From assembly GCA_046583355.1 (NCBI GenBank), contig JAYGCM010000018.1:1302-65301 (forward strand): a stretch of DNA of 64,000 bases, in the 5' to 3' direction. The notes beneath the pieces were generated by a model that did no database searches, was not told the origin of the DNA, and was given only the letters and a program-made list of their open reading frames with translations. A program made the translations under genes and the position numbers. The stretch is from Deltaproteobacteria bacterium. GTDB taxonomy: Bacteria; Desulfobacterota; Binatia; UBA12015. This document shows, piece after piece, positions 16,929-46,649 of the stretch; positions within the stretch are counted from its first letter, which is position 1; every line of letters begins with the position of its first letter.

Positions 16929-17531
16929 TTAGCGACGCTTCTTCGCGCCGGCCTTTTTCTTCTTGGCTGCGGCTTTTTTCTTCGGCGCAGCCTTTTTCTT
17001 GGCCACGGCCTTTTTCTTCGGCGCAGCCTTTTTCTTGGCTACGGCCTTTTTCTTCGGTGCAGCCTTTTTCTTGGCTACGGCCTTTTTCTTCGGTGCAGCC
17101 TTTTTCTTGGCTACGGCCTTCTTCTTCGGCGCGGCCTTTTTCTTGGCTACGGCCTTCTTCTTCGGCGCAGCCTTTTTCTTGGCTACGGCCTTCTTCTTCG
17201 CCACCGTCTTTTTGACGACAGGCTTAGTCGCAGTAGCTTTCTTCTTGCTACCGGCCTTTTTCTTGGCTGCGGCGCGCTTGGCTGCTGTGCGCTTCTTGGC
17301 GGCTTCGAGCTTCTTGCGAGCTGCTTCTTCCGAGAACTTTACGCCACCGACTTTGTAACGGCCGCGAACCTTCGGCTGGTACCGCAGGCGCATGGTGATC
17401 TTGTGCTGCTCGTAATGCTTTTCGCAGCGCCAGCCCTTGAAGGCTTTCTCGCTACAAAGAACACAAAGGCCCATGGCACGGTGCTTGCGCTGCCAGCGAG
17501 CCTGGCGACTGATTTGAGATGCGTCTTTCAT
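16929..17531 (-). CDS. histone H1-like / nucleoid-associated K/A-repeat protein with N-terminal Cys/His motif
   Basis: AGGAGG RBS 5 nt upstream of the ATG. N-terminus has C-x2-C-x9-C-x2-H. C-terminal tail is 6 x KKKAVAKKKAAP plus further AKK-rich sequence; 200 aa. Confidence 0.7.
   Translation of the reverse strand: MKDASQISRQARWQRKHRAMGLCVLCSEKAFKGWRCEKHYEQHKITMRLRYQPKVRGRYKVGGVKFSEEAARKKLEAAKKRTAAKRAAAKKKAGSKKKATATKPVVKKTVAKKKAVAKKKAAPKKKAVAKKKAAPKKKAVAKKKAAPKKKAVAKKKAAPKKKAVAKKKAAPKKKAVAKKKAAPKKKAAAKKKKAGAKKRR
16975..17215. repeat. perfect 36-bp tandem repeat array (~6.5 copies) encoding the KKKAVAKKKAAP repeats
   Basis: Unit ggcgcagcctttttcttggctacggcctttttcttc recurs head-to-tail with only silent or near-silent variants. 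Lies inside the CDS; there are no spacers, so it is not CRISPR. Confidence 0.85.
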
Positions 17532-21973: not shown

Positions 21974-22065
21974 GGCCCACGTTTGCCGCAGCGAGCATGC
22001 AGTCGCAAGGGGACAGAATTCGGTACACGTCCCGCTGAAGGGGACAGGTTTGGGTACACGTCCCC

Positions 22066-23382
22066 TTAAAGGGCCGCGTCGAAGAAAAGGTGACAGGCGG
22101 CTACGGCGCCGGCGATGCCGGCCAGGTCACCGATCAGGCAGCAGGCGAGTGCGTGGCGGGCGTCGCGGACGCCTGCGGCGCCGAGGTAGAGGGCCAGGAC
22201 GTAGAAGGTGGTTTCGGTGGAGCCCTGGAGGGTGCTGACCAGGTAGCCGACAAAGGAGTCGGGGCCGTAGGCGGTGAGGGTTTCGCTCATGATCGCAAAA
22301 GAGCCGGAGCCGGAGAGGGGGCGCAGCAGGGCCATCGGGAGTGCGGCGGCGGGCAGGCCGATGCGGCTGGTGATGGGGTCGATGGCGCCGATGATCAGGT
22401 CGAGGGCGCCCGAGGCGCGGAACATGCCGACGGCGACGAGAATGCCGACCAGGTAGGGAACGATGCGGGCGGCGACTTCGAGGCCTTCGCGCGCGCCGGC
22501 GACCATCGACTCGTAGACACGCACGCGACCACGGATGCCGATCAGCAGAAGTCCGACGATCAGGAGCGGGAAGAGCCAGGTTTGCAGAAGGTTCTGCACG
22601 ATCGCGCCGGGGCCTTCGCTTTGCGCGAGGCGACTGGCCTCGCGCAAAAGACCCACAGCGAGGGCACCCAGGGTGAACCAGATGGTCAAGCGATTGCCCA
22701 GGCTACGCGGCGTCGCGGCGGTTGGCACGGGTGTCTCGGTCGGGAGTTCGATCTCGGGCGGAGGCGCGGCGGGAGCGGCGCCACCGGCGGGTGATCGGTG
22801 GCGGAAACGGGGCAGGCGGCGCAGCAAATAAAAGGCGCTTACGGCGGCGACGGTGGAGCAGGTGGTGGCGATCAAAGTAGGCAGCCAGATGGCCTCGGGA
22901 TGCGCCGAACCCGCGGCCACACGCACGCCGATTGTGCCCAGCGGCGGCAGGATGGTGATCGCCGAGGTGTTGATCGCGAGAAAGAGCACCATCGCATCGG
23001 TGGCGGCACCGCGATGCGGGTTCAGGCGATCGAGATCCGCCATCGCCTTGAGGCCGAAGGGCGTGGCCGCGTTGCCCAGGCCCGCCATATTGGACGACAT
23101 ATTCATGACCATCGCGCTCATAGCGGGATGGTCTTCGGGAACGTCCGGGAAGAGACGGCGCAGCACGGGAGCGAGAACGCGTGCAATGCCTTCCCGCAGG
23201 CCGCCGTCGAAGGCCACGCGCATGGCACCGAGCAGGAAGACCATGATGCCGACCAAGCCGATCACCAGCGTTACCGCCGAGTTCGCACTGCTGAAAATCG
23301 CCGCCGTGACCTCGGCCATGCGACCGGTCAGACCGCCCCAGACCACTGCCACCAGAATTAACCCCGCCCAGACCGCATTCAC
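22066..23382 (-). CDS. nucleoside-recognition (Gate) domain membrane protein, SpmA/SpmB-like fusion
   Basis: Two hydrophobic halves with Gate-domain-like motifs separated by a Pro/Ala-rich linker; 438 aa. Confidence 0.55.
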   Translation of the reverse strand: MNAVWAGLILVAVVWGGLTGRMAEVTAAIFSSANSAVTLVIGLVGIMVFLLGAMRVAFDGGLREGIARVLAPVLRRLFPDVPEDHPAMSAMVMNMSSNMAGLGNAATPFGLKAMADLDRLNPHRGAATDAMVLFLAINTSAITILPPLGTIGVRVAAGSAHPEAIWLPTLIATTCSTVAAVSAFYLLRRLPRFRHRSPAGGAAPAAPPPEIELPTETPVPTAATPRSLGNRLTIWFTLGALAVGLLREASRLAQSEGPGAIVQNLLQTWLFPLLIVGLLLIGIRGRVRVYESMVAGAREGLEVAARIVPYLVGILVAVGMFRASGALDLIIGAIDPITSRIGLPAAALPMALLRPLSGSGSFAIMSETLTAYGPDSFVGYLVSTLQGSTETTFYVLALYLGAAGVRDARHALACCLIGDLAGIAGAVAACHLFFDAAL

Positions 23383-30091: not shown

Positions 30092-31231
30092 ATGAGCGGA
30101 CCCCTGAGCGGATTCAAAATCATCGAGATGGCGGGCATCGGCCCTGGACCCTTCTGCGGCATGATGCTCTCGGACCTCGGTGCCGAGATTCTGCGCATCG
30201 ACCGGGCAGACAAGGTGAAACCCGACGCGGTGCCCAATACGGATCTGATGGGCCGGGGCCGCCGAAGTATTGGCGTGAACCTCAAAACACCCGAGGGCGT
30301 CGAGTTGGTGCTGGGCCTCCTGGAGAAAGCCGACGGCCTGATTGAAGGCTATCGGCCCGGCGTGATGGAACGCCTCGGCCTCGGCCCTGATGCCTGCCTC
30401 GCGCGCAACCCGGGTCTGGTCTACGGCCGCATGACGGGCTGGGGGCAGGACGGACCCCTGGCCCAGGCCGCCGGACACGATATCAACTATATCGCGATTG
30501 CCGGTGCTTTGGAGCCAATGGGTCGCAGCGGCGAGGCGCCCCTTCCGCCGCTCAATCTGGTCGGCGATTTCGGCGGCGGCGGTATGTTGCTTGCCTACGG
30601 CATGGTTGCGGGGATGCTTGAGAAAACGCGGTCGGGCAAAGGCCAGGTCATCGACGCGGCCATGGTCGACGGCGCTGCCGCGCTGATGACGATGATCAAC
30701 GGAATGCGGCAGACCGGCTTCTGGAAAGAAGAGCGCGGCGCGAACCTGCTCGATACCGGTGCCTTCTATTACGATGTCTATGAGTGCAGTGATGGGAAAT
30801 TCATCTCGATCGGTGCGATCGAACCGCAATTTTATGCCGAGATGCTTGAGAAGCTGGGCTTGACGCACGACGATTTCCCAGGGCAATTCGAGCGCGAGAA
30901 ATGGCCCGCGGCCAAAGTGAAAATCGCCGCCATCTGGAAGACCAAGACGCGCGCTGCGTGGTGTGAAATCTTCGCCGGCAGCGATGCCTGCTTTGCGCCC
31001 GTGCTCGCGATGTCCGAGGCGCCTGAACATGAGCATATGAAGGCCCGCGGCACCTTCGTCGAGCGCGATGGCATGGTGCAAGCGGCGCCGGCACCGCGTT
31101 TCTCGCGCACGCCGGGCGAAATTCAGGGCCCGCCGGTGAACCCCGGGCAACATACCGACTCGGCGCTTGCCGATTGGGGGCTGTCGGCAGACGAGGTCGC
31201 CAAGCTCAAAGCGAGCAGCGCGATCGCCTAG
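30092..31231 (+). CDS. CoA transferase family III (CaiB/BaiF; alpha-methylacyl-CoA racemase-like)
   Basis: GFKIIEMAGIGPGPFCGMMLSDLGAE, GYRPGVMERLGLGPD, HDINYIA motifs; 379 aa. Confidence 0.85.
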   Translation: MSGPLSGFKIIEMAGIGPGPFCGMMLSDLGAEILRIDRADKVKPDAVPNTDLMGRGRRSIGVNLKTPEGVELVLGLLEKADGLIEGYRPGVMERLGLGPDACLARNPGLVYGRMTGWGQDGPLAQAAGHDINYIAIAGALEPMGRSGEAPLPPLNLVGDFGGGGMLLAYGMVAGMLEKTRSGKGQVIDAAMVDGAAALMTMINGMRQTGFWKEERGANLLDTGAFYYDVYECSDGKFISIGAIEPQFYAEMLEKLGLTHDDFPGQFEREKWPAAKVKIAAIWKTKTRAAWCEIFAGSDACFAPVLAMSEAPEHEHMKARGTFVERDGMVQAAPAPRFSRTPGEIQGPPVNPGQHTDSALADWGLSADEVAKLKASSAIA

Positions 31232-40306: not shown

Positions 40307-41440
40307 TCAATCCAAAGCGAAACGCTCCGGCGCCAGGCGGGCTGCGTCGAAACATGAGGTGCGTCCCGAGGCGATCAATTCGGCAGCAATCCGCGCATAG
40401 GCCGGGCTGGTCTCGATGCCGGCCCCTCCCTGGCCGGCGAGCCAGAAGAAGCCCGGTCGCCGTGGGTCGGCGCCGATAACAGGCGCTCCGTCTGGGGCAA
40501 AGGTACGCAGGCCGGACCAGCGCGAGCGAATGGTCCGCGGCACAAGCGAGGGCGCAAGATCGCGCAATCGCTCGATCGCGGCGGCGATCGTCTCCTCGTC
40601 GGGACTCGGGTCGCAGGCCTGCATGGGAACCTGGTCCATCGGACTGAGCATCAACGAACCAGCCTCGGGCACGAAATAGACGTTATGCGGGTCGCTCCAG
40701 ACCATCGGCCAGTCCGCAAAATCGGCGTCGGCCGGGCCGGGAAAGGTAAAGAGCGAGCGGCGCTTCGGCTGCAAGGGAATCGGACTTGCTTCGGCCAATG
40801 CGCCGATATGCCCGGCCCAGGCGCCGGCGGCATTCACGACCAGGTCGGCACGCACATCGCCCTGGGGCAGACGCACGCCGACCACGCGGGGGCCATCGCG
40901 CAAAAGACCCGCCACCTCGGCGCCCAGGACCAACTCCGCCCCCGCGGCGCGGGCATGGCGCAGATAGCTTTGCAGAATCCCGTGTACATCCAAACGGCCA
41001 TCGTGAGCGATGAAGAGTCCGCCTGCGATCCCCGGTGCCGCCAGTACAGGCATCTTCGCCCGGCAAGAGGCTGCGGATAGGAGTTCAAATTCCAAGCCCC
41101 GGCTGCGCAACTCGGCCTCACGCGCTGCCAGCGCGGCCCAGCCCTCGGCGGCGAAGAGCGACAGGACGCCGATCGGGTTGAGCGGCGCGTCGGCGAAAAG
41201 GGCAGCTGGTGGATTGCGCCAGAAGCGCGAGCCGAGGATCTTCAGGTCGAGCACGACCTCGTTTTCATCAAACGCACTGATGGACGCAGCACTGCGGCCC
41301 GTCGCATGGACGGCGAGCTGAGTCTCACGCTCGAGAATCAGGACGTCTCCGATGCCCTCATCGGCAAGGAAAGAGGCGAGGGAGGCCCCGGCGATGCCGC
41401 CTCCAATGATGATCACGTCATAGCCGGCAGCTGGCTTCAT
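40307..41440 (-). CDS. FAD-dependent oxidoreductase (DAO family)
   Basis: N-terminal FAD motif DVIIIGGGIAGASLA; 377 aa. Confidence 0.8.
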   Translation of the reverse strand: MKPAAGYDVIIIGGGIAGASLASFLADEGIGDVLILERETQLAVHATGRSAASISAFDENEVVLDLKILGSRFWRNPPAALFADAPLNPIGVLSLFAAEGWAALAAREAELRSRGLEFELLSAASCRAKMPVLAAPGIAGGLFIAHDGRLDVHGILQSYLRHARAAGAELVLGAEVAGLLRDGPRVVGVRLPQGDVRADLVVNAAGAWAGHIGALAEASPIPLQPKRRSLFTFPGPADADFADWPMVWSDPHNVYFVPEAGSLMLSPMDQVPMQACDPSPDEETIAAAIERLRDLAPSLVPRTIRSRWSGLRTFAPDGAPVIGADPRRPGFFWLAGQGGAGIETSPAYARIAAELIASGRTSCFDAARLAPERFALD

Positions 41441-41691
41441 AGACTCGGAAGTATCAGAAAAAATCCCGGATTGCGGCGCGCGCTCTCCCTCTGGGCGGGA
41501 CAGATACCAAATCTGAGGATTGAGGGGGGCGCCGCGATGCTGCTACCATGGAGGTGCGACGCACCGACAAAGCAGGAGCACCGGTCCGCCTGGCAGCGGC
41601 CCGACTCGCAGAACGCTCCACTTTCCGTTTTATTCAGAGCGCGTTTACGGCCTTGGGCCGATTCACTTCAGGAAGCCGAGACACGATAATT

Positions 41692-42585
41692 ATGAGTATT
41701 CACGACGATCAGTTGAAAAAGGTGCAGAACGAGGACGGGTTTCTCGCAGCCCTGGACCAGAGCGGCGGCAGCACGCCGAAGGCACTCAAACTCTACGGCG
41801 TCGAAGAGAACGAATATTCCGGCGAAGCCGAGATGTTCGACCGCATCCACGCGATGCGCACGCGCATCATGGCGAGCTCGGTCTTCGGCGGCGATCGTAT
41901 TCTCGGCGCCATCCTCTTTGAGATGACAATGGATCGCAAAGTCGAGGGCCAGCACTCGGCGGCCTACCTCTGGAACGAGAAAAAGGTCGTCCCTTTCCTG
42001 AAGACCGACAAGGGCCTGGCGGACGAAGCAAATGGCGTACAGGTGATGAAGCCGATGCCGGATCTCGATGCGCTCTGCGAGCGTGCGGTTACCAAGGCGG
42101 TTTTCGGCACCAAGATGCGCTCGGTCGTGAAACTCGCCAATGCGCAGGGAATCGACGCGATTGTCGAGCAACAATTTGCTATTGGAAAGCAGATCATCGG
42201 GCATGGTCTGGTGCCCATCCTGGAGCCCGAAGTTGATATCCATAGCCCGGAAAAAGCACAGGCAGAGTCCTTGCTTCGTGCCGCTCTTCTCGCCCATGCC
42301 GGACAACTCGCCGACGACCAGCAAATCATGCTCAAGCTGACCTTGCCCGAAGAGGACGGCTTCTACACGGAACTGATCGATCATCCGCGCGTCATCAAGG
42401 TGGTCGCACTCTCGGGCGGCTACAGCCGTGACGAGGCAAACACGCGATTGGGCCGGAACAAGGGCATGATCGCGAGCTTCTCGCGCGCGCTGACGCAGGG
42501 GCTTTCGGCCAAGCAGAGCGACGCCGAGTTCGACAAAATGTTGGACGGCTCGATCGAGTCGATCTTCCAGGCCTCCCGCACATGA
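41692..42585 (+). CDS. fda: fructose-bisphosphate aldolase, class I (Fda/PRK05377 type)
   Basis: [52 protein letters not shown] match the staphylococcal-type class I FBA along its whole length. Confidence 0.85.
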
Positions 42586-44249
42586 GCTTCGAGCGAGACC
42601 GGCGCGGCCCCGGATCTGCGGGTCCGCCGCGCGACGATAGACGAGGACCGCCACGCGACTTCAGCCCCGGTGGACCGGGTCGCGACGACCGTCGTGGTCC
42701 GCCACGCGGGGATTTCCGTGGTCCGCCACGCGACGATAGACGAGGACCGCCACGCGACTTCAGCCCCGGTGGACCGGGTCGCGACGACCGCCGTGGTCCG
42801 CCGCGCGGGGATTTCCGTGGTCCGCCACGCGACGATAGACGAGGATCGCCGCGTGACTTCAGCCCCGGTGGGCCGGGCCGCGATGACCGCCGTGGCCCGC
42901 CGCGCGAGGATTTCCGTGGTCCGCCGCGCGACGATAGACGAGGACCGCCACGTGATTTTCGCGGCGAACCGCGCCGCGACGAAGGCAGACGCCCAGCCGA
43001 GGCGCGCGACGGCGGCAGCGAGCGGCCCGAACCCCGCAAGCCATTGCTGCGTCACGTTCCAAAAACAGACCAGGTTCAATGCCCGCATTGGCCCGCCTGC
43101 ATCGGCTGCCCGGGGATGGGGCGCTCCTATACGAAGCAATTGACCGTCAAGCATCAGAAGCTGGTGGATGCCTTTGCCGAGCATTCCGAACTCGAAGGCG
43201 TACAGATTCTCAGCCCGGTCGGGAGCCCACGGGCCACAGGCTACCGCAATCACGCCAAGCTCGTCTTCCGGGCGCGCCGCAACCGCGAAACGCTTGAGGA
43301 CGAAGTGATCCTTGGCGTCTTCAAGCCGGGCACCCATAGCGTCATGCCGGCCGATTCCTGTATTGTCCACCATCGCCGCCTGCAGCCGCTCCTGCGCGTG
43401 CTGCGCAGGGAAGTCGAGGAACTCGGGATTCCGATCTACGACGAGCGGACCGGGGAGGGTGCGCTGCGCTTCGCCTTGGCCCGGACCTCCGATATGGCCA
43501 GCCGAACCCATCTGACCCTGGTCTCCGCCACCGACAAGATCCAGAAATTGAACACCTTGGTGCTGCGCATGCAGCATAAGTTCAAGGAATTGGAGTCGGT
43601 CTTTCTCTGCGTGAACGCAGAGGGCGGCAACCAACTCCTGACCGATGATATCCGGCAGATCAAAGGCCCGCCGGCGCTGCGTGAGAAATTCGGCGACCTG
43701 ATTCTGGAGTCGCGCTCGGGCGCTTTCCTGCAGGCCAATACGGAGATTGCTTCCCGCATCTACGATACCGCAGCACGCTGGCTGGATGCTTGGGCGGCCG
43801 AGGGTGTCATCGACCTCTATTGCGGGGTGGGCGCGTTGGGTCTCGCCGCAGCAGGGCGCAATACGCGCCTGCTGGGCATCGAAGCGTCCAAGTCGGCGGT
43901 CGAATGCGCGACGGCGAATGCGAAACGCATGCAGCGTCATGGCGCTGAATTCGTCGCAGCACCTGCTGAAGATGTTGGTAAAATCGCGGCCGAAAAGGGC
44001 TTCGCAAAGCCGGCGGCACTGATCGTCAACCCGCCGCGGCGAGGTTTGAGTCAGGAAGCGGGTGACGCGATCCTGAAACTCGCGCCGCGCCGGATTCTCT
44101 ATGTCTCGTGTAACCTGGAGACATTGACGCGCGATCTACTCGCGTTCGTGCGCGAGGGCTGGGTGGTTAGCCGAGCACGTATGTTCGATATGCTGCCGCA
44201 AACGCCGCATATCGAGATCATGGTCCTGATGGAGCGTCGGGCTACCTGA
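42582..44249 (+). CDS. 23S rRNA (uracil-C5)-methyltransferase RlmD/RumA family with R/D/P-rich repetitive N-terminal extension
   Basis: ATGA overlap with the fda stop. Residues 14-125 are 16/17-aa RDDRRGPPR(G)DF... repeats. A 4-Cys cluster follows ([12 protein letters not shown]), then SAM-MTase motifs ([16 protein letters not shown]). Confidence 0.85.
42620..42960. repeat. 99-bp tandem repeat (~3.3 copies) encoding the [33 protein letters not shown] super-repeat
   Basis: Near-identical 99-nt units visible directly in the DNA, inside the CDS. Confidence 0.8.
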
Positions 44250-44327
44250 CGCTCCCGCCTGCCTATCTCACCAGGATTGTCGTACGAGTGACCAATCCTG
44301 GTGAGGAACGCGGGTGAGCGGCTGGAA

Positions 44328-46649
44328 TCAGTCGCGGGCGCGTAGACCGGCTGGCTTGCCGCGCTTGACGACCTTATTGCCTTTGCCGCCTCGATTGATC
44401 GGGGGGAATTCCTTCACCGGCGTCTGGCGTGGGTTGCCGCCTTCAATCTCGATGATCAGCTTCTCGTTGATATCGGCCGTCACGGCACCCAATAAGCTCT
44501 CGCTTGGGTCCACACGCATCAGAATCACACCGCGTCCGACGCCGGCGAGTTCGGCCACATCACCGAGCGGAAAGCGCAGCCCCTTGCCGCCGGAGGCTAG
44601 ACAGACCACCTCGTCGCCGGCAATTTCGCTGACGACCACAAGTTGGTCGTCGGTGGCGACGCGTGCGAAGCGCCGCCCGGTTCGCGTGGTGGGGGAGAGT
44701 TCCGGCGCCGCCCGGAATCCGTAGCCACGCTCCGATGCGACCAGAATCGGCCGCGTTTCTTGTTCGAGTTCGATCACATCGTTTTTGGCGAAGAGTTCGG
44801 CCTGCGTTTTCTTCTCTTTCACACTCGGTGCGGGTAGCTCGGGCGCGTCTTCCTGGACCAGCATGGAGTAGAGGATTTTCTCGCGGTCCTTGAAGCGGAA
44901 AAGCGATTGGACGGGCTCGCCGTAGCCAGTGGTGGCGGGCAGGTCGGCCACCGCCGTGACGTAGAGGACGCCCTGCGTACTGAAGAAGGCAATCCGATCC
45001 TTGGTGGAACCGATATGCGTGGCCCACAAGGAATCGCCTTCACGAAGGCGTGGCTTGGCGCCTTCTTTGAGCTCGCGAACGCGTCGTATCCAGCCGTCTT
45101 TGGTGATGAGAACCGTGGCCTCTTCATGCACGATATAGGCATCCGGATCGTAGGCGAGATCTTCTTTGCCGCGCACGGAAGTGGCCGTGCGACGCTTGTC
45201 GCCGTGGTCTTCGCGAAGCTGCAACATCTCGTTACGGATCATGCCCCAGCGCGCCTTGGGACTCTTGAGCAGCTTTTCGACTTCTTTGAGACGCTTGGAT
45301 TTCGCGGCGAACTCTTCGCGAATTTTATCAATCTCGAGCTTGGCGAGCTGGTAGAGGCGGATCTCGAGGATCGCATCGGCCTGCACTTCGTCGAGTTCGA
45401 ATGCCTTGCAGAGCTTTTTGTTGGCATTGGCGCGGCTCTCGGCCTTGCGAATGATGCGGATGGCTAAATCGATATCACCATAGATCGCGATGAAGCCGGC
45501 CAGAATATGCAGGCGCTCCTGCAATTTGCGCTGCTCGAAGGCCAGCCGGCGCGTCACGACCTCGAGGCGGAAGTCAAGAAAGGAGCGGCAGAGTTCCAGC
45601 AACGAGACGCGACTGGGCTGTCCGGCCGGCGAGTCGGCCACCGGCGAGAGGCAGGTGAGGTTTACATGGAAGTTCACCTGCAGGTCGGAATGTTTGAAGA
45701 GATAGGCCATGGCGGCCTCGGGATCAGCGCCGGTCTTCAATTCCAGGACGATACGCACCTCGGCGGTTGATTCGTCACGAACATCGACCAGCAGGGGAAG
45801 TTTGCGATCGATGATCAAGTTGGCGATCTGCTCGATCAGGGTCGCCTTGTTCACCGCATAGGGAATCTCATGGACAATAATATGCTGCTTGCCGCGCGGC
45901 GCCTTCTCCATCTTCCAGGCACCGCGCAGCTTGAGCGGGCCGTGGCCGGTTTCGTAGATCGAGAGCAACTCGCCGCGGCTCGTGAGCAATTCGCCCGCCG
46001 TCGGGAAATCCGGGCCCTTGATATGCTTGAGCAGGTCCTTCACTTCGAGCTTGGGATCATCGATCAGGGCGATCAACGCGTCGCAAACCTCGTTGAGGTT
46101 ATGCGGCGGAATATTGGTCGCCATGCCGACGGCGATTCCGGTCGAGCCGTTGATCAGAAGCTGCGGCAGGCGACTGGGCAGGACGGAGGGCTCGTCGTTG
46201 GTGGCGTCGTAATTCGGTCGCCAGTCGACCGTGTCGGCGCCGAGGTCTTCGAGCAACTCCTCGGCAATCCGGGTGAGCTTCGCCTCGGTGTAGCGGTAGG
46301 CGGCCGGCGAGTCGCCGTCGAGCGAGCCGAAATTGCCCTGGCCGTTGACCAGCGGGTAGCGCAGCGAGAAATCCTGCGCCATACGAACCATCGCATCGTA
46401 AGCGGCCGTATCGCCATGCGGATGGTATTTGCCGATCACCTCGCCAACGATTTGTGCGGATTTCCGCGGCTTGGCCCCGGAGAGAAGGCGCAGGTTGCGA
46501 AACATAGCAAAGAGAATGCGCCGCTGGACGGGTTTCAAGCCATCGCGGACGTCGGGCAATGCCCGCGACGTGATGACCGAAAGCGCATAGCTCAGATAGC
46601 GGTGTTCGGCGGCCGTGCGTAGATCGGCGTCAGTGGCCTCGTTGCTCAT
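44328..46649 (-). CDS. parC: type IIA topoisomerase A subunit (probably topoisomerase IV ParC)
   Basis: [21 protein letters not shown], active-site region [10 protein letters not shown]; 773 aa, shorter than a typical GyrA. Confidence 0.8.

Follow-up and report, generated by a model that had tools for sequence, protein, structure and literature searches.

Layout of the locus and identity of the enzyme core

Two forward-strand genes overlap by four nucleotides within the window, the 64,000-nt stretch of DNA analyzed here. The upstream gene (41692..42585, +) encodes a class I fructose-bisphosphate aldolase (PF00274, 36.5 bits); it lies in a 345-aa ORF (41548..42585), of which the likely product is a 297-aa form starting at Met49, and its orthologues are called at 297 aa in L001, L002, L005 and L008. 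The downstream CDS (42582..44249, +) corresponds to 555 aa, comprising a disordered tail, an Fe-S/central domain and a SAM-dependent m5U methyltransferase domain. The ATGA shared by the aldolase TGA and the methyltransferase ATG (42582..42585, +) can be read directly from the sequence, so the overlap with an upstream class I aldolase named in the original prediction is real. GTGA replaces ATGA at the same junction in L001, L002, L003, L005, L008 and L012, and in L095 and L096 the methyltransferase likewise begins at a GTG, one preceded by the same conserved residues. Because no obvious Shine-Dalgarno-like sequence was found before ATG 42582, we infer that expression of the methyltransferase may be coupled to translation of the aldolase through the 4-nt overlap.

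Profile, structure and residue comparisons showed that residues ~165-555 constitute a TRAM-less [4Fe-4S]-type RNA (uracil-C5)-methyltransferase of the RumA/RlmD-RlmC-TrmA family (COG2265), in agreement with the RumA/RlmD-type assignment originally proposed. For TIGR00479 (rumA) the score was 241.2 bits (cutoff 183.55) over profile positions 51-432, and for PF05958 it was 77 bits (cutoff 23), the latter match delimiting a SAM-dependent (uracil-5)-methyltransferase domain at aa 374-553 (43701..44240, +; E=1.8e-21) that includes a 17-aa motif. Sequence matches in the PDB were RlmCD, RumA, the P. horikoshii protein 8z62 and TrmA, and the best Foldseek matches were RlmCD, RumA and the same proteins as in the sequence search, over ~378 core columns; the core was modeled by AF2 with pLDDT >90.

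The predicted catalytic and cluster-binding residues are all intact. The first three putative [4Fe-4S] ligands fall in a 10-aa segment (43080..43109, +) with the spacing C167-x5-C173-x2-C176 and align to RumA C81, C87 and C90, while the fourth, Cys260 (43359..43361, +), aligns to RumA C162; in RumA these four cysteines are the cluster ligands (PMC5614603). The RumA-type four-cysteine cluster recognized at the outset was thus recovered residue by residue, with C167, C173 and C176 nearly invariant among 13 aligned homologues and Cys260 invariant in the alignment. The presumed nucleophile, Cys510 in YVSCN (44109-44111, +), and base, Glu545 in TPHIE (44214-44216, +), align to RumA C389 and E424 (HLE), respectively, and both are invariant in a 50-sequence alignment. 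SAM-binding motif I (a 10-aa segment) is also present. Models for two other members of the family were rejected: all RlmC models scored below cutoff (NF002910, 203.8 vs 558; NF002909, 192.9 vs 553; TIGR02085, 187.6 vs 429.5), and the TrmA model TIGR02143 reached 79.3 against 334.65 over the catalytic domain only, the cysteine cluster being present here and TrmA having no Fe-S cluster.

Typical family members carry a TRAM domain of ~75 aa. No match to TRAM (PF01938) was found in the 555-aa protein, and the TIGR00479 alignment begins only at profile position 51. Long R/D-rich N-terminal extensions without a precomputed TRAM match also occur in P0059, P0075, P0078 and P0080. The original prediction had the extension replacing the TRAM region; this is accurate only with respect to position, since other Binatia-type relatives (L013 and L014) are devoid of TRAM and tail alike. 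A scan of GTDB genomes for close relatives returned none and yielded mostly TRAM-bearing Firmicutes enzymes; it was used as a background sample of family architectures.

Repeat structure and translation of the N-terminal extension

The N-terminal extension, as delimited by composition, AF2, charge measures and a stop-free frame in nine loci, covers aa 1-166 (42582..43079, +). Within it, Tandem Repeats Finder identified 3.4 copies of a 99-bp tandem repeat (42621..42952, +; score 580, 93% matches, no indels), a periodicity far beyond chance, with a degenerate 24-bp period nested inside. The array is in frame, 99 bp being 33 codons, and spans aa 14-124. Each 33-aa unit consists of four GPPR-type sub-units of 8 or 9 aa (GPPRDDRR, GPPRDFSPG, GPGRDDRR and GPPRGDFR), which bears out the near-perfect 99-bp repeats and the alternation of 17 and 16 aa described earlier. 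The tail arose by recent tandem duplication of this unit. How many copies the window truly contains is uncertain, and the assembled number could be an artefact, because 330 bp of copies that are 91-97% identical are hard for short-read assemblers and the contigs of six relatives end inside the repeat region.

In the public annotation, the protein (P0001, NCBI MFP6663383.1, 100% identical) has 377 aa and starts at Met179, an internal ATG (43116..43118, +) in the list of possible starts. Judged from the alignment to RumA, this start call is wrong, because three of the four Fe-S cysteines come before Met179. The coding evidence instead showed a single predicted 555-aa protein translated from the ATG overlapping the aldolase stop. 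The methyltransferase frame, and no other, is stop-free from the aldolase stop to the Cys cluster in nine of nine syntenic loci from related Binatia-like bacteria. In L005, L008 and L012, no in-frame start precedes the first Cys other than the GTG that overlaps the aldolase stop; in L095 the only other one sits 2 codons before that Cys, and L096 has an additional in-frame ATG 22 codons into the tail. One gene caller already predicted the 555-aa form in L001. The (R)VPK(S/T)(D/E)QVQC segment directly before the Cys cluster is conserved. Among the repeat copies, codon position 3 accounts for 9 of the 11 variable columns (binomial p=0.0014), and pairwise comparison gave 23 synonymous and 5 non-synonymous differences, counts that cannot tell the sense frame from an antisense frame sharing third positions; the strand was instead assigned from stop-codon counts and from the way the frame runs on into the enzyme core. 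The upstream region, which might have proved non-coding in homologues, stays open in the relatives, where the R/D/G/P composition is kept and the start overlaps the aldolase stop.

An untranslated repeat region, with 42586-43043 an intergenic tandem repeat and the true start at TTG 43044 or at the annotated ATG 43116, is therefore extremely unlikely. NCBI and JGI annotations do begin at Met179 or later (P0001, P0003-P0006, P0122 and P0123), GC3 is lower in the tail (0.61) than in the core (0.74), and the missing Shine-Dalgarno-like sequence at ATG 42582 would also fit this reading. However, a start at Met179 would fall after three nearly invariant cysteines, TTG 43044 has no counterpart in the three loci whose sole in-frame start is the GTG at the aldolase stop, and neither the stop-free frame at nine loci nor the clustering of repeat differences at codon position 3 would be expected of intergenic DNA.

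The correction extends beyond this gene, since for most close relatives, too, NCBI and JGI place the start at an internal Met or divide the gene between two ORFs. Expression or modeling of the annotated protein, from which three Fe-S ligands out of four are missing, would give a defective enzyme. The misannotation has a general cause: a GTG or ATG start overlaps an upstream stop and leads into repeat DNA whose codon statistics are atypical. Annotation is the most certain of the three reasons for which the locus is important, ahead of evolution and then mechanism.

Composition and turnover of the tail

The extension (aa 1-166) contains 26% R, 15% D, 17% G and 20% P, with 8% hydrophobic residues and a net charge of +13. 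Its fraction of charged residues is 0.46, 19% of residues are acidic, and the net charge per residue is +0.08. Compared with shuffled sequences, positive and negative charges are interspersed more evenly along it (z = -3). AF2 gave pLDDT <50 for residues 1-158, values that may partly reflect the shallow alignment there, and placed no secondary structure in residues 1-158 or in 8-180; the charge-hydropathy measure also puts the tail on the disordered side. Residues 1 to ~160 are thus predicted to be a disordered, well-mixed Arg/Asp/Gly/Pro polyampholyte with net positive charge, and the disorder suspected from the composition was recovered by both predictors. The tail contains no RGG motifs and no aromatic-rich motifs.

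A word-indexed protein search with the tail alone gave one match, a Bacteroidota hypothetical protein with (RDDRRGGP)x10, a result that says little about distribution because composition-bias correction strips the tail signal in such searches. An exhaustive phmmer search gave 32 matches, and the 31 scanned against Pfam carried unrelated domains (zf-C2H2, cornifin, gp5, RRM and others). The similarity of the tail to other proteins is therefore compositional, as judged by these searches, and not that of a homologous domain; a portable domain or a specific, conserved 'RDDRRGP' motif family was rejected on this basis.

Length polymorphism, which the original prediction had anticipated from the repeats, was found between relatives. 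Tails are between 59 and 323 aa long, the repeat unit is 24, 75 or 99 bp depending on lineage, and a clean in-frame indel of 48 bp separates two near-identical loci, L002 and L003. All three of the contigs closest to this one (L097-L099; 76-81% DNA identity, from different species) end inside the repeat, the unit in L097 being 75 bp. In the seven loci measured, R makes up 24-28% and D 10-16% of the tail, net charge is +9 to +37 and hydrophobic residues account for 3-8%, and tail loss was seen in none of the loci of the clade examined. A metagenome scan with a single core protein as query found nothing, and one with an alignment as query recovered four loci, two of them with full tails. The tail is a lineage-specific feature whose frame and composition are kept while its length and repeat unit turn over fast, most simply by slippage or unequal recombination. 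The locus offers a natural series, in which one enzyme core carries tails that differ in repeat unit and run from 59 to 323 aa, and which could be used as a test set for the effects of disordered-region length and charge on an RNA-modifying enzyme.

Tail function and comparison with known systems

The explanation that we favor, at a probability of roughly 60%, is that a translated, repeat-built tail on a TRAM-less m5U methyltransferase acts as an RNA tether in a gene coupled to the aldolase. By analogy with other RNA-handling enzymes, the tail would serve as a non-specific, electrostatic arm that raises the affinity or capture radius of the enzyme for its substrate, a large structured RNA that would most likely be 23S rRNA within 50S particles under assembly. 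It would be functionally analogous, not homologous, to the TRAM/OB domain of RumA and to the Arg-rich disordered regions of Rho and RhlE. For example, Arg-rich disordered insertions increase the RNA affinity of Mycobacterium and Micrococcus Rho (PMC11347177), and disordered regions of RhlE facilitate RNA binding (PMC11260450). The R/D-tailed homologues without a precomputed TRAM match also bear on this proposal. Several observations count against a tether: the fold can do without the tail, as shown by L013, L014 and others that lack it along with TRAM; the more than five-fold variation in length and the low sequence conservation also fit weak constraint; and the tail has no homologous domain family and is 19% acidic, which lowers its charge per residue.

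Weak constraint in its extreme form would make the tail a translated but essentially neutral product of slippage-driven low-complexity expansion at a permissive N-terminus, contributing nothing meaningful to RNA binding or activity. The lineage-dependent length and repeat unit, the missing homologous family, and related enzymes that work without an N-terminal domain, such as E. coli RlmC, which has no TRAM (PMC5614603), and those of L013 and L014, are all consistent with neutrality. Nevertheless, we consider it rather unlikely, given that every lineage retains the composition, the positive net charge and the very low hydrophobicity even though the repeat structure has turned over completely, that repeat differences are biased to synonymous sites, and that the tail is retained in every examined locus of the clade. 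A tail that works mainly through condensate partitioning, docking to proteins (ribosomal proteins or degradosome-like assemblies), autoinhibition or turnover control seems decidedly improbable, even though in RhlE2 both clustering and partner binding are driven by Arg-rich disordered regions of mixed charge (PMC11260450), as is phase separation in Bacteroides Rho (PMC11347177). The high charged fraction of the tail would also suit such a role. Well-mixed charges, however, favor expanded coils over homotypic condensation in polyampholyte theory, so strong self-association of this evenly mixed tail is disfavored; moreover, it has neither aromatic-rich nor RGG motifs, and no candidate partner was identified.

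The choice of RNA substrate is a separate question from that of tail function. Substrate specificity in COG2265 is not readable from sequence, and neither is the rRNA substrate named in the original prediction; 23S rRNA would be the most likely one. That the substrate is tRNA U54 (the TrmA function) or U747, and not U1939 as the name RlmD implies, is a substantive but clearly less probable option. The RumA-like enzyme of the archaeon Pyrococcus abyssi is described as a tRNA U54 methyltransferase (PMC2528175), and PDB 2jjq is among the matches; the TRAM-less architecture is like that of RlmC and unlike that of RumA, and RlmCD in complex with U747 RNA gives the closest structural matches. Weighing against both sites, TIGR00479 is above its cutoff, whereas the RlmC and TrmA equivalog models are far below theirs.

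A more speculative extension of the tether reading, which we regard as quite unlikely, is that selection maintains the tail as a module able to evolve rapidly, with repeat number tuning recruitment to nascent rRNA or RNA-rich assemblies, and that R/D tails arose independently several times (in the Binatia clade, P0059 and P0075/P0078/P0080) as a substitute for TRAM/OB. If so, this would be a general, undescribed route by which bacterial RNA-modification enzymes swap a folded RNA-binding domain for a low-complexity one. Substitution for TRAM would likewise extend the role of disordered regions known in Rho, RhlE and RNase E to bacterial rRNA/tRNA methyltransferases. The literature searched contained no report of disordered tails on RlmD-type enzymes, and nothing here overturns current understanding.

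Among characterized enzymes, E. coli RumA/RlmD (PDB 1UWV and 2BH2; 23S rRNA m5U1939) has the same central and catalytic domains, four cysteines, nucleophile and base, with a target-normalized Foldseek TM-score of 0.76 and a core identity of only ~25%; its N-terminal TRAM/OB beta-barrel of ~70 aa contrasts with the 166-aa disordered R/D/G/P repeat tail found here. RlmC (RumB) and other TRAM-less COG2265 proteins (L013, L014 and L046) resemble this protein in that the folded part begins close to the Cys cluster, but a long disordered extension at the N-terminus is absent from RlmC. Over the central and catalytic domains, the best match both in sequence (E=2.7e-42) and in structure (Foldseek E=4.8e-40, rmsd 1.9 A) is Streptococcus pneumoniae RlmCD (PDB 5XJ1, 5XJ2 and 5ZQ0), which has a TRAM domain and no Fe-S cluster, the reverse of the arrangement here. 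Atypical Rho proteins of Mycobacterium, Micrococcus and Bacteroides likewise carry lineage-specific, variable-length Arg/Asp/Gly-rich disorder on an RNA-handling enzyme (PMC11347177), although the host protein is unrelated and the likeness is one of analogy, no sequence homology to the tail being detected. Finally, the basic disordered tails of RhlE-type DEAD-box helicases tune core activity in addition to facilitating RNA binding (PMC11260450); they are C-terminal, belong to another enzyme class and differ in composition, and the function that has been demonstrated experimentally for them is the one suggested here by analogy.

Reading frame and start site

The methyltransferase ORF (42582..44249, +, 555 aa) contains an in-frame tandem array with a 99-bp period at 42621-42952 (Tandem Repeats Finder: 3.4 copies, 93% matches, no indels, score 580), within which a weaker 24-bp period is nested. 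Each copy encodes the 33-aa unit GPPRDDRR / GPPRDFSPG / GPGRDDRR / GPPRGDFR, whose four sub-units match the alternating 17- and 16-aa units of the original prediction. Its start ATG shares bases with the TGA of the upstream class I fructose-bisphosphate aldolase gene (PF00274; 41548..42585, +, 345 aa from the first ATG) in the predicted ATGA overlap, so that this description of repeat and ORF was confirmed in all particulars. Aldolase orthologues are called at 297 aa versus 345 aa for the window ORF, and the true aldolase start is likely Met49 at 41692.

The NCBI protein identical to that of the window (P0001, MFP6663383.1, "MAG: ... RlmD [Deltaproteobacteria bacterium]") has 377 aa and starts at Met179. 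To assess whether the region upstream is non-coding in homologues, the outcome named as refuting the original prediction, we compared the syntenic loci of the closest relatives (FAD oxidase(-), aldolase, methyltransferase, gyrA(-)). At every locus reaching the aldolase gene the frame is open back to a start overlapping the aldolase stop (GTGA in L001, L002, L003, L005, L008 and L012; L-numbers denote loci from other genomes or metagenomes), and the prediction stands. L095 and L096 also have a GTG start, preceded by the same conserved upstream residues. The overlapping GTG is the sole in-frame ATG, GTG or TTG ahead of the first cluster Cys in L005, L008 and L012; L095 has a single other in-frame start, 2 codons ahead of that Cys, and L096 an additional ATG 22 codons into the tail. 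When the extension was read in six frames at nine loci, only the methyltransferase frame had zero stops. When the three full repeat copies of the window are compared, codon position 3 holds 9 of the 11 variable columns (binomial p=0.0014); of the pairwise differences, 23 are synonymous and 5 non-synonymous. Finally, C167, C173 and C176 all precede Met179; they are nearly invariant among 13 aligned homologues and align to C81, C87 and C90 of RumA, ligands of its [4Fe-4S] cluster (PMC5614603). The open frame, the conserved overlapping start, the position-3 bias and the Fe-S cysteines upstream of Met179 together show that the annotated start is incorrect and that the 555-aa reading is the right one. 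For a relative, P0002, the 555-aa form is already the output of one gene caller.

An internal-Met start past the CxxxxxCxxC motif recurs in the protein matches P0001, P0003-P0005, P0122 and P0123, and that of P0006 is even further downstream. ORFs called across the repeats in another frame (L002 1465-1968, L008 3348-3950, L012 569-1423) are spurious, their frames carrying stops in sister loci. Gene calls in public databases are systematically wrong for this family, and the firmest practical consequence is that start mis-annotation deprives the predicted proteins of Fe-S ligands.

The order FAD-dependent oxidase(-), aldolase(+), methyltransferase(+), gyrA(-) spans 40307..46649 of the window and is kept in L001 and L008, which also have gyrB upstream and a BipA-type GTPase downstream. 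Since the start overlaps the aldolase stop by 4 nt and no Shine-Dalgarno-like sequence precedes it in the window, methyltransferase synthesis may rely on termination by the ribosomes that translate the aldolase, which we propose with low-to-moderate confidence.

A methyltransferase core with a predicted disordered tail

The predicted RlmD-type assignment is supported by the rumA/RlmD equivalog model TIGR00479 (NCBIfam; 241 bits, above the 183.6 cutoff), although the alignment begins only at profile position 51; scores for the RlmC and TrmA equivalog models were far under their cutoffs. A Pfam scan of the 555-aa protein matched PF05958 and found no TRAM domain. Of proteins with solved structures, the closest are S. 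pneumoniae RlmCD, E. coli RumA, P. horikoshii 8Z62, P. abyssi TrmU54 and TrmA. AlphaFold2, run with a 50-sequence alignment, gave pLDDT >90 for residues about 165-555, and Foldseek recovered the same relatives over about 378 columns, covering the central and catalytic domains only. C260 aligns to RumA C162, completing with C167, C173 and C176 the RumA-type 4-Cys cluster that had been predicted. The catalytic residues match as well, C510 (YVSCN) with the nucleophile, C389, and E545 with the base, E424. The 50-sequence alignment shows no variation at C260, C510 or E545. Family models, fold match and aligned ligand and catalytic residues argue for an intact Fe-S-type m5U RNA methyltransferase. 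It shares its TRAM-less architecture with RlmC but is closer in sequence to RumA/RlmD, and sequence does not fix whether the target is U1939, U747 or tRNA U54.

In residues 1-166, Arg accounts for 26%, Asp for 15%, Gly for 17%, Pro for 20% and hydrophobic residues for 8%; the net charge is +13. As predicted, this tail is probably disordered: it falls firmly on the disordered side of the charge-hydropathy plot, and AlphaFold models residues 1-158 without secondary structure at pLDDT <50, a value partly expected from shallow alignment coverage. Charged residues make up a fraction of 0.46, and charges of opposite sign alternate more evenly than in shuffled versions (z = -3). Established polyampholyte theory predicts expanded coils for charges so well mixed, and this pattern argues against strong self-driven condensation, though not against RNA binding; chaperone- or condensate-like behaviour would be conjectural. 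The window encodes one translated protein, an Fe-S m5U methyltransferase core without TRAM joined to a disordered, net-positive polyampholyte tail.

Turnover and origin of the tail

Tail length, taken as the residues ahead of the first cluster Cys, is 166 in the window, 159 in L001, 210 in L002, 194 in L003, 59 in L005, 189 in L008, 319 in L012, 305 in L095 and 323 in L096. Composition is similar in the seven loci other than L095 and L096 (Arg 24-28%, Asp 10-16%, hydrophobic 3-8%, net charge +9 to +37). Repeat structure is not conserved: the amplified unit is 99 bp in the window and 75 bp in L097 (81% DNA identity), L002 and L008 carry runs of a 24-bp DDRRGPPR unit, and L012, L095 and L096 carry GGPRGSD-type units. 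L002 and L003, from different samples, encode identical core proteins; in the tail stretch their differences are three SNPs and a single clean in-frame indel of 48 bp (two units), and L093 shows a third arrangement. This is direct evidence from a sister lineage for the repeat-number polymorphism originally predicted. The tail was built by recent tandem duplication, its frame and composition kept while its length turns over. Because six independent metagenome contigs (L004, L093, L094, L097, L098 and L099) have 5' ends inside the repeat-encoding region, short-read assemblies break at this repeat and the copy number in any single assembly, the window included, is provisional.

Another highly basic, low-complexity tail made of repeats lies in the window, in a 200-aa ORF (16929..17531, -) with a 36-bp tandem repeat at 16960-17200 (6.7 copies, 95% matches). 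Its C-terminal half comprises about seven copies of AKKKAAPKKKAV and resembles a histone-H1-like or AlgP-like Lys/Ala-rich tail, and its N-terminal part has a CxxC...C..H motif. Shorter tandem repeats lie at 22007-22073 (31-bp unit x2.2) and 30334-30392 (24-bp unit x2.4).

Possible role of the tail

Across 80 GTDB loci sampled as background, a ~75-aa TRAM precedes the cluster in most enzymes. Some, among them the Binatia-type L013 and L014, lack anything at that place, and a few others bear low-complexity extensions of basic character (L018, L028, L029); neither TRAM nor tail is obligatory in the family. The prediction that the extension replaces TRAM holds for its position, but replacement proper is not borne out by these sequences, given the tail-less, TRAM-less L013 and L014. 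In the protein matches P0059 (781 aa), P0075, P0078 and P0080, which have no precomputed TRAM match, the cluster directly follows a very long R/D-rich N-extension, compatible with a repeated origin of disordered R/D-rich tails in TRAM-less members.

With moderate confidence, we propose that the tail would tether a large RNA substrate through non-specific electrostatic contacts, standing in functionally for the missing OB-fold. The main rival is that it is a tolerated, near-neutral slippage product, as its extreme length variation and the existence of tail-less relatives would suggest; nevertheless, its composition is conserved, repeat differences are biased to codon position 3, and it is kept in every clade locus examined.

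We also considered whether the tail is a known or homologous module and rejected this, since an exhaustive phmmer search against 1.84 billion representative proteins gave 32 matches, and the 31 scanned with Pfam have unrelated domains (C2H2 zinc fingers, cornifin, phage gp5, RRM, bactofilin and others), indicating compositional similarity. A word-indexed search with the tail alone returned one match, P0121, an unrelated 284-aa hypothetical protein from a Bacteroidota MAG with no Pfam domain and about ten tandem RDDRRGGP octapeptides; its unit is nearly that of the window and is probably of convergent origin. The literature searched contains no description of disordered tails on RlmD-type enzymes. 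The protein is a novel form within an enzyme family that is already well known and does not represent a new type of system. For the proposed function, the nearest analogues of the tail are the Arg/Asp/Gly-rich disordered insertions of atypical Rho, reported to increase affinity for RNA or to promote phase separation (PMC11347177); RhlE helicases offer a further comparison, as their disordered C-terminal regions help RNA binding and tune core activity (PMC11260450).
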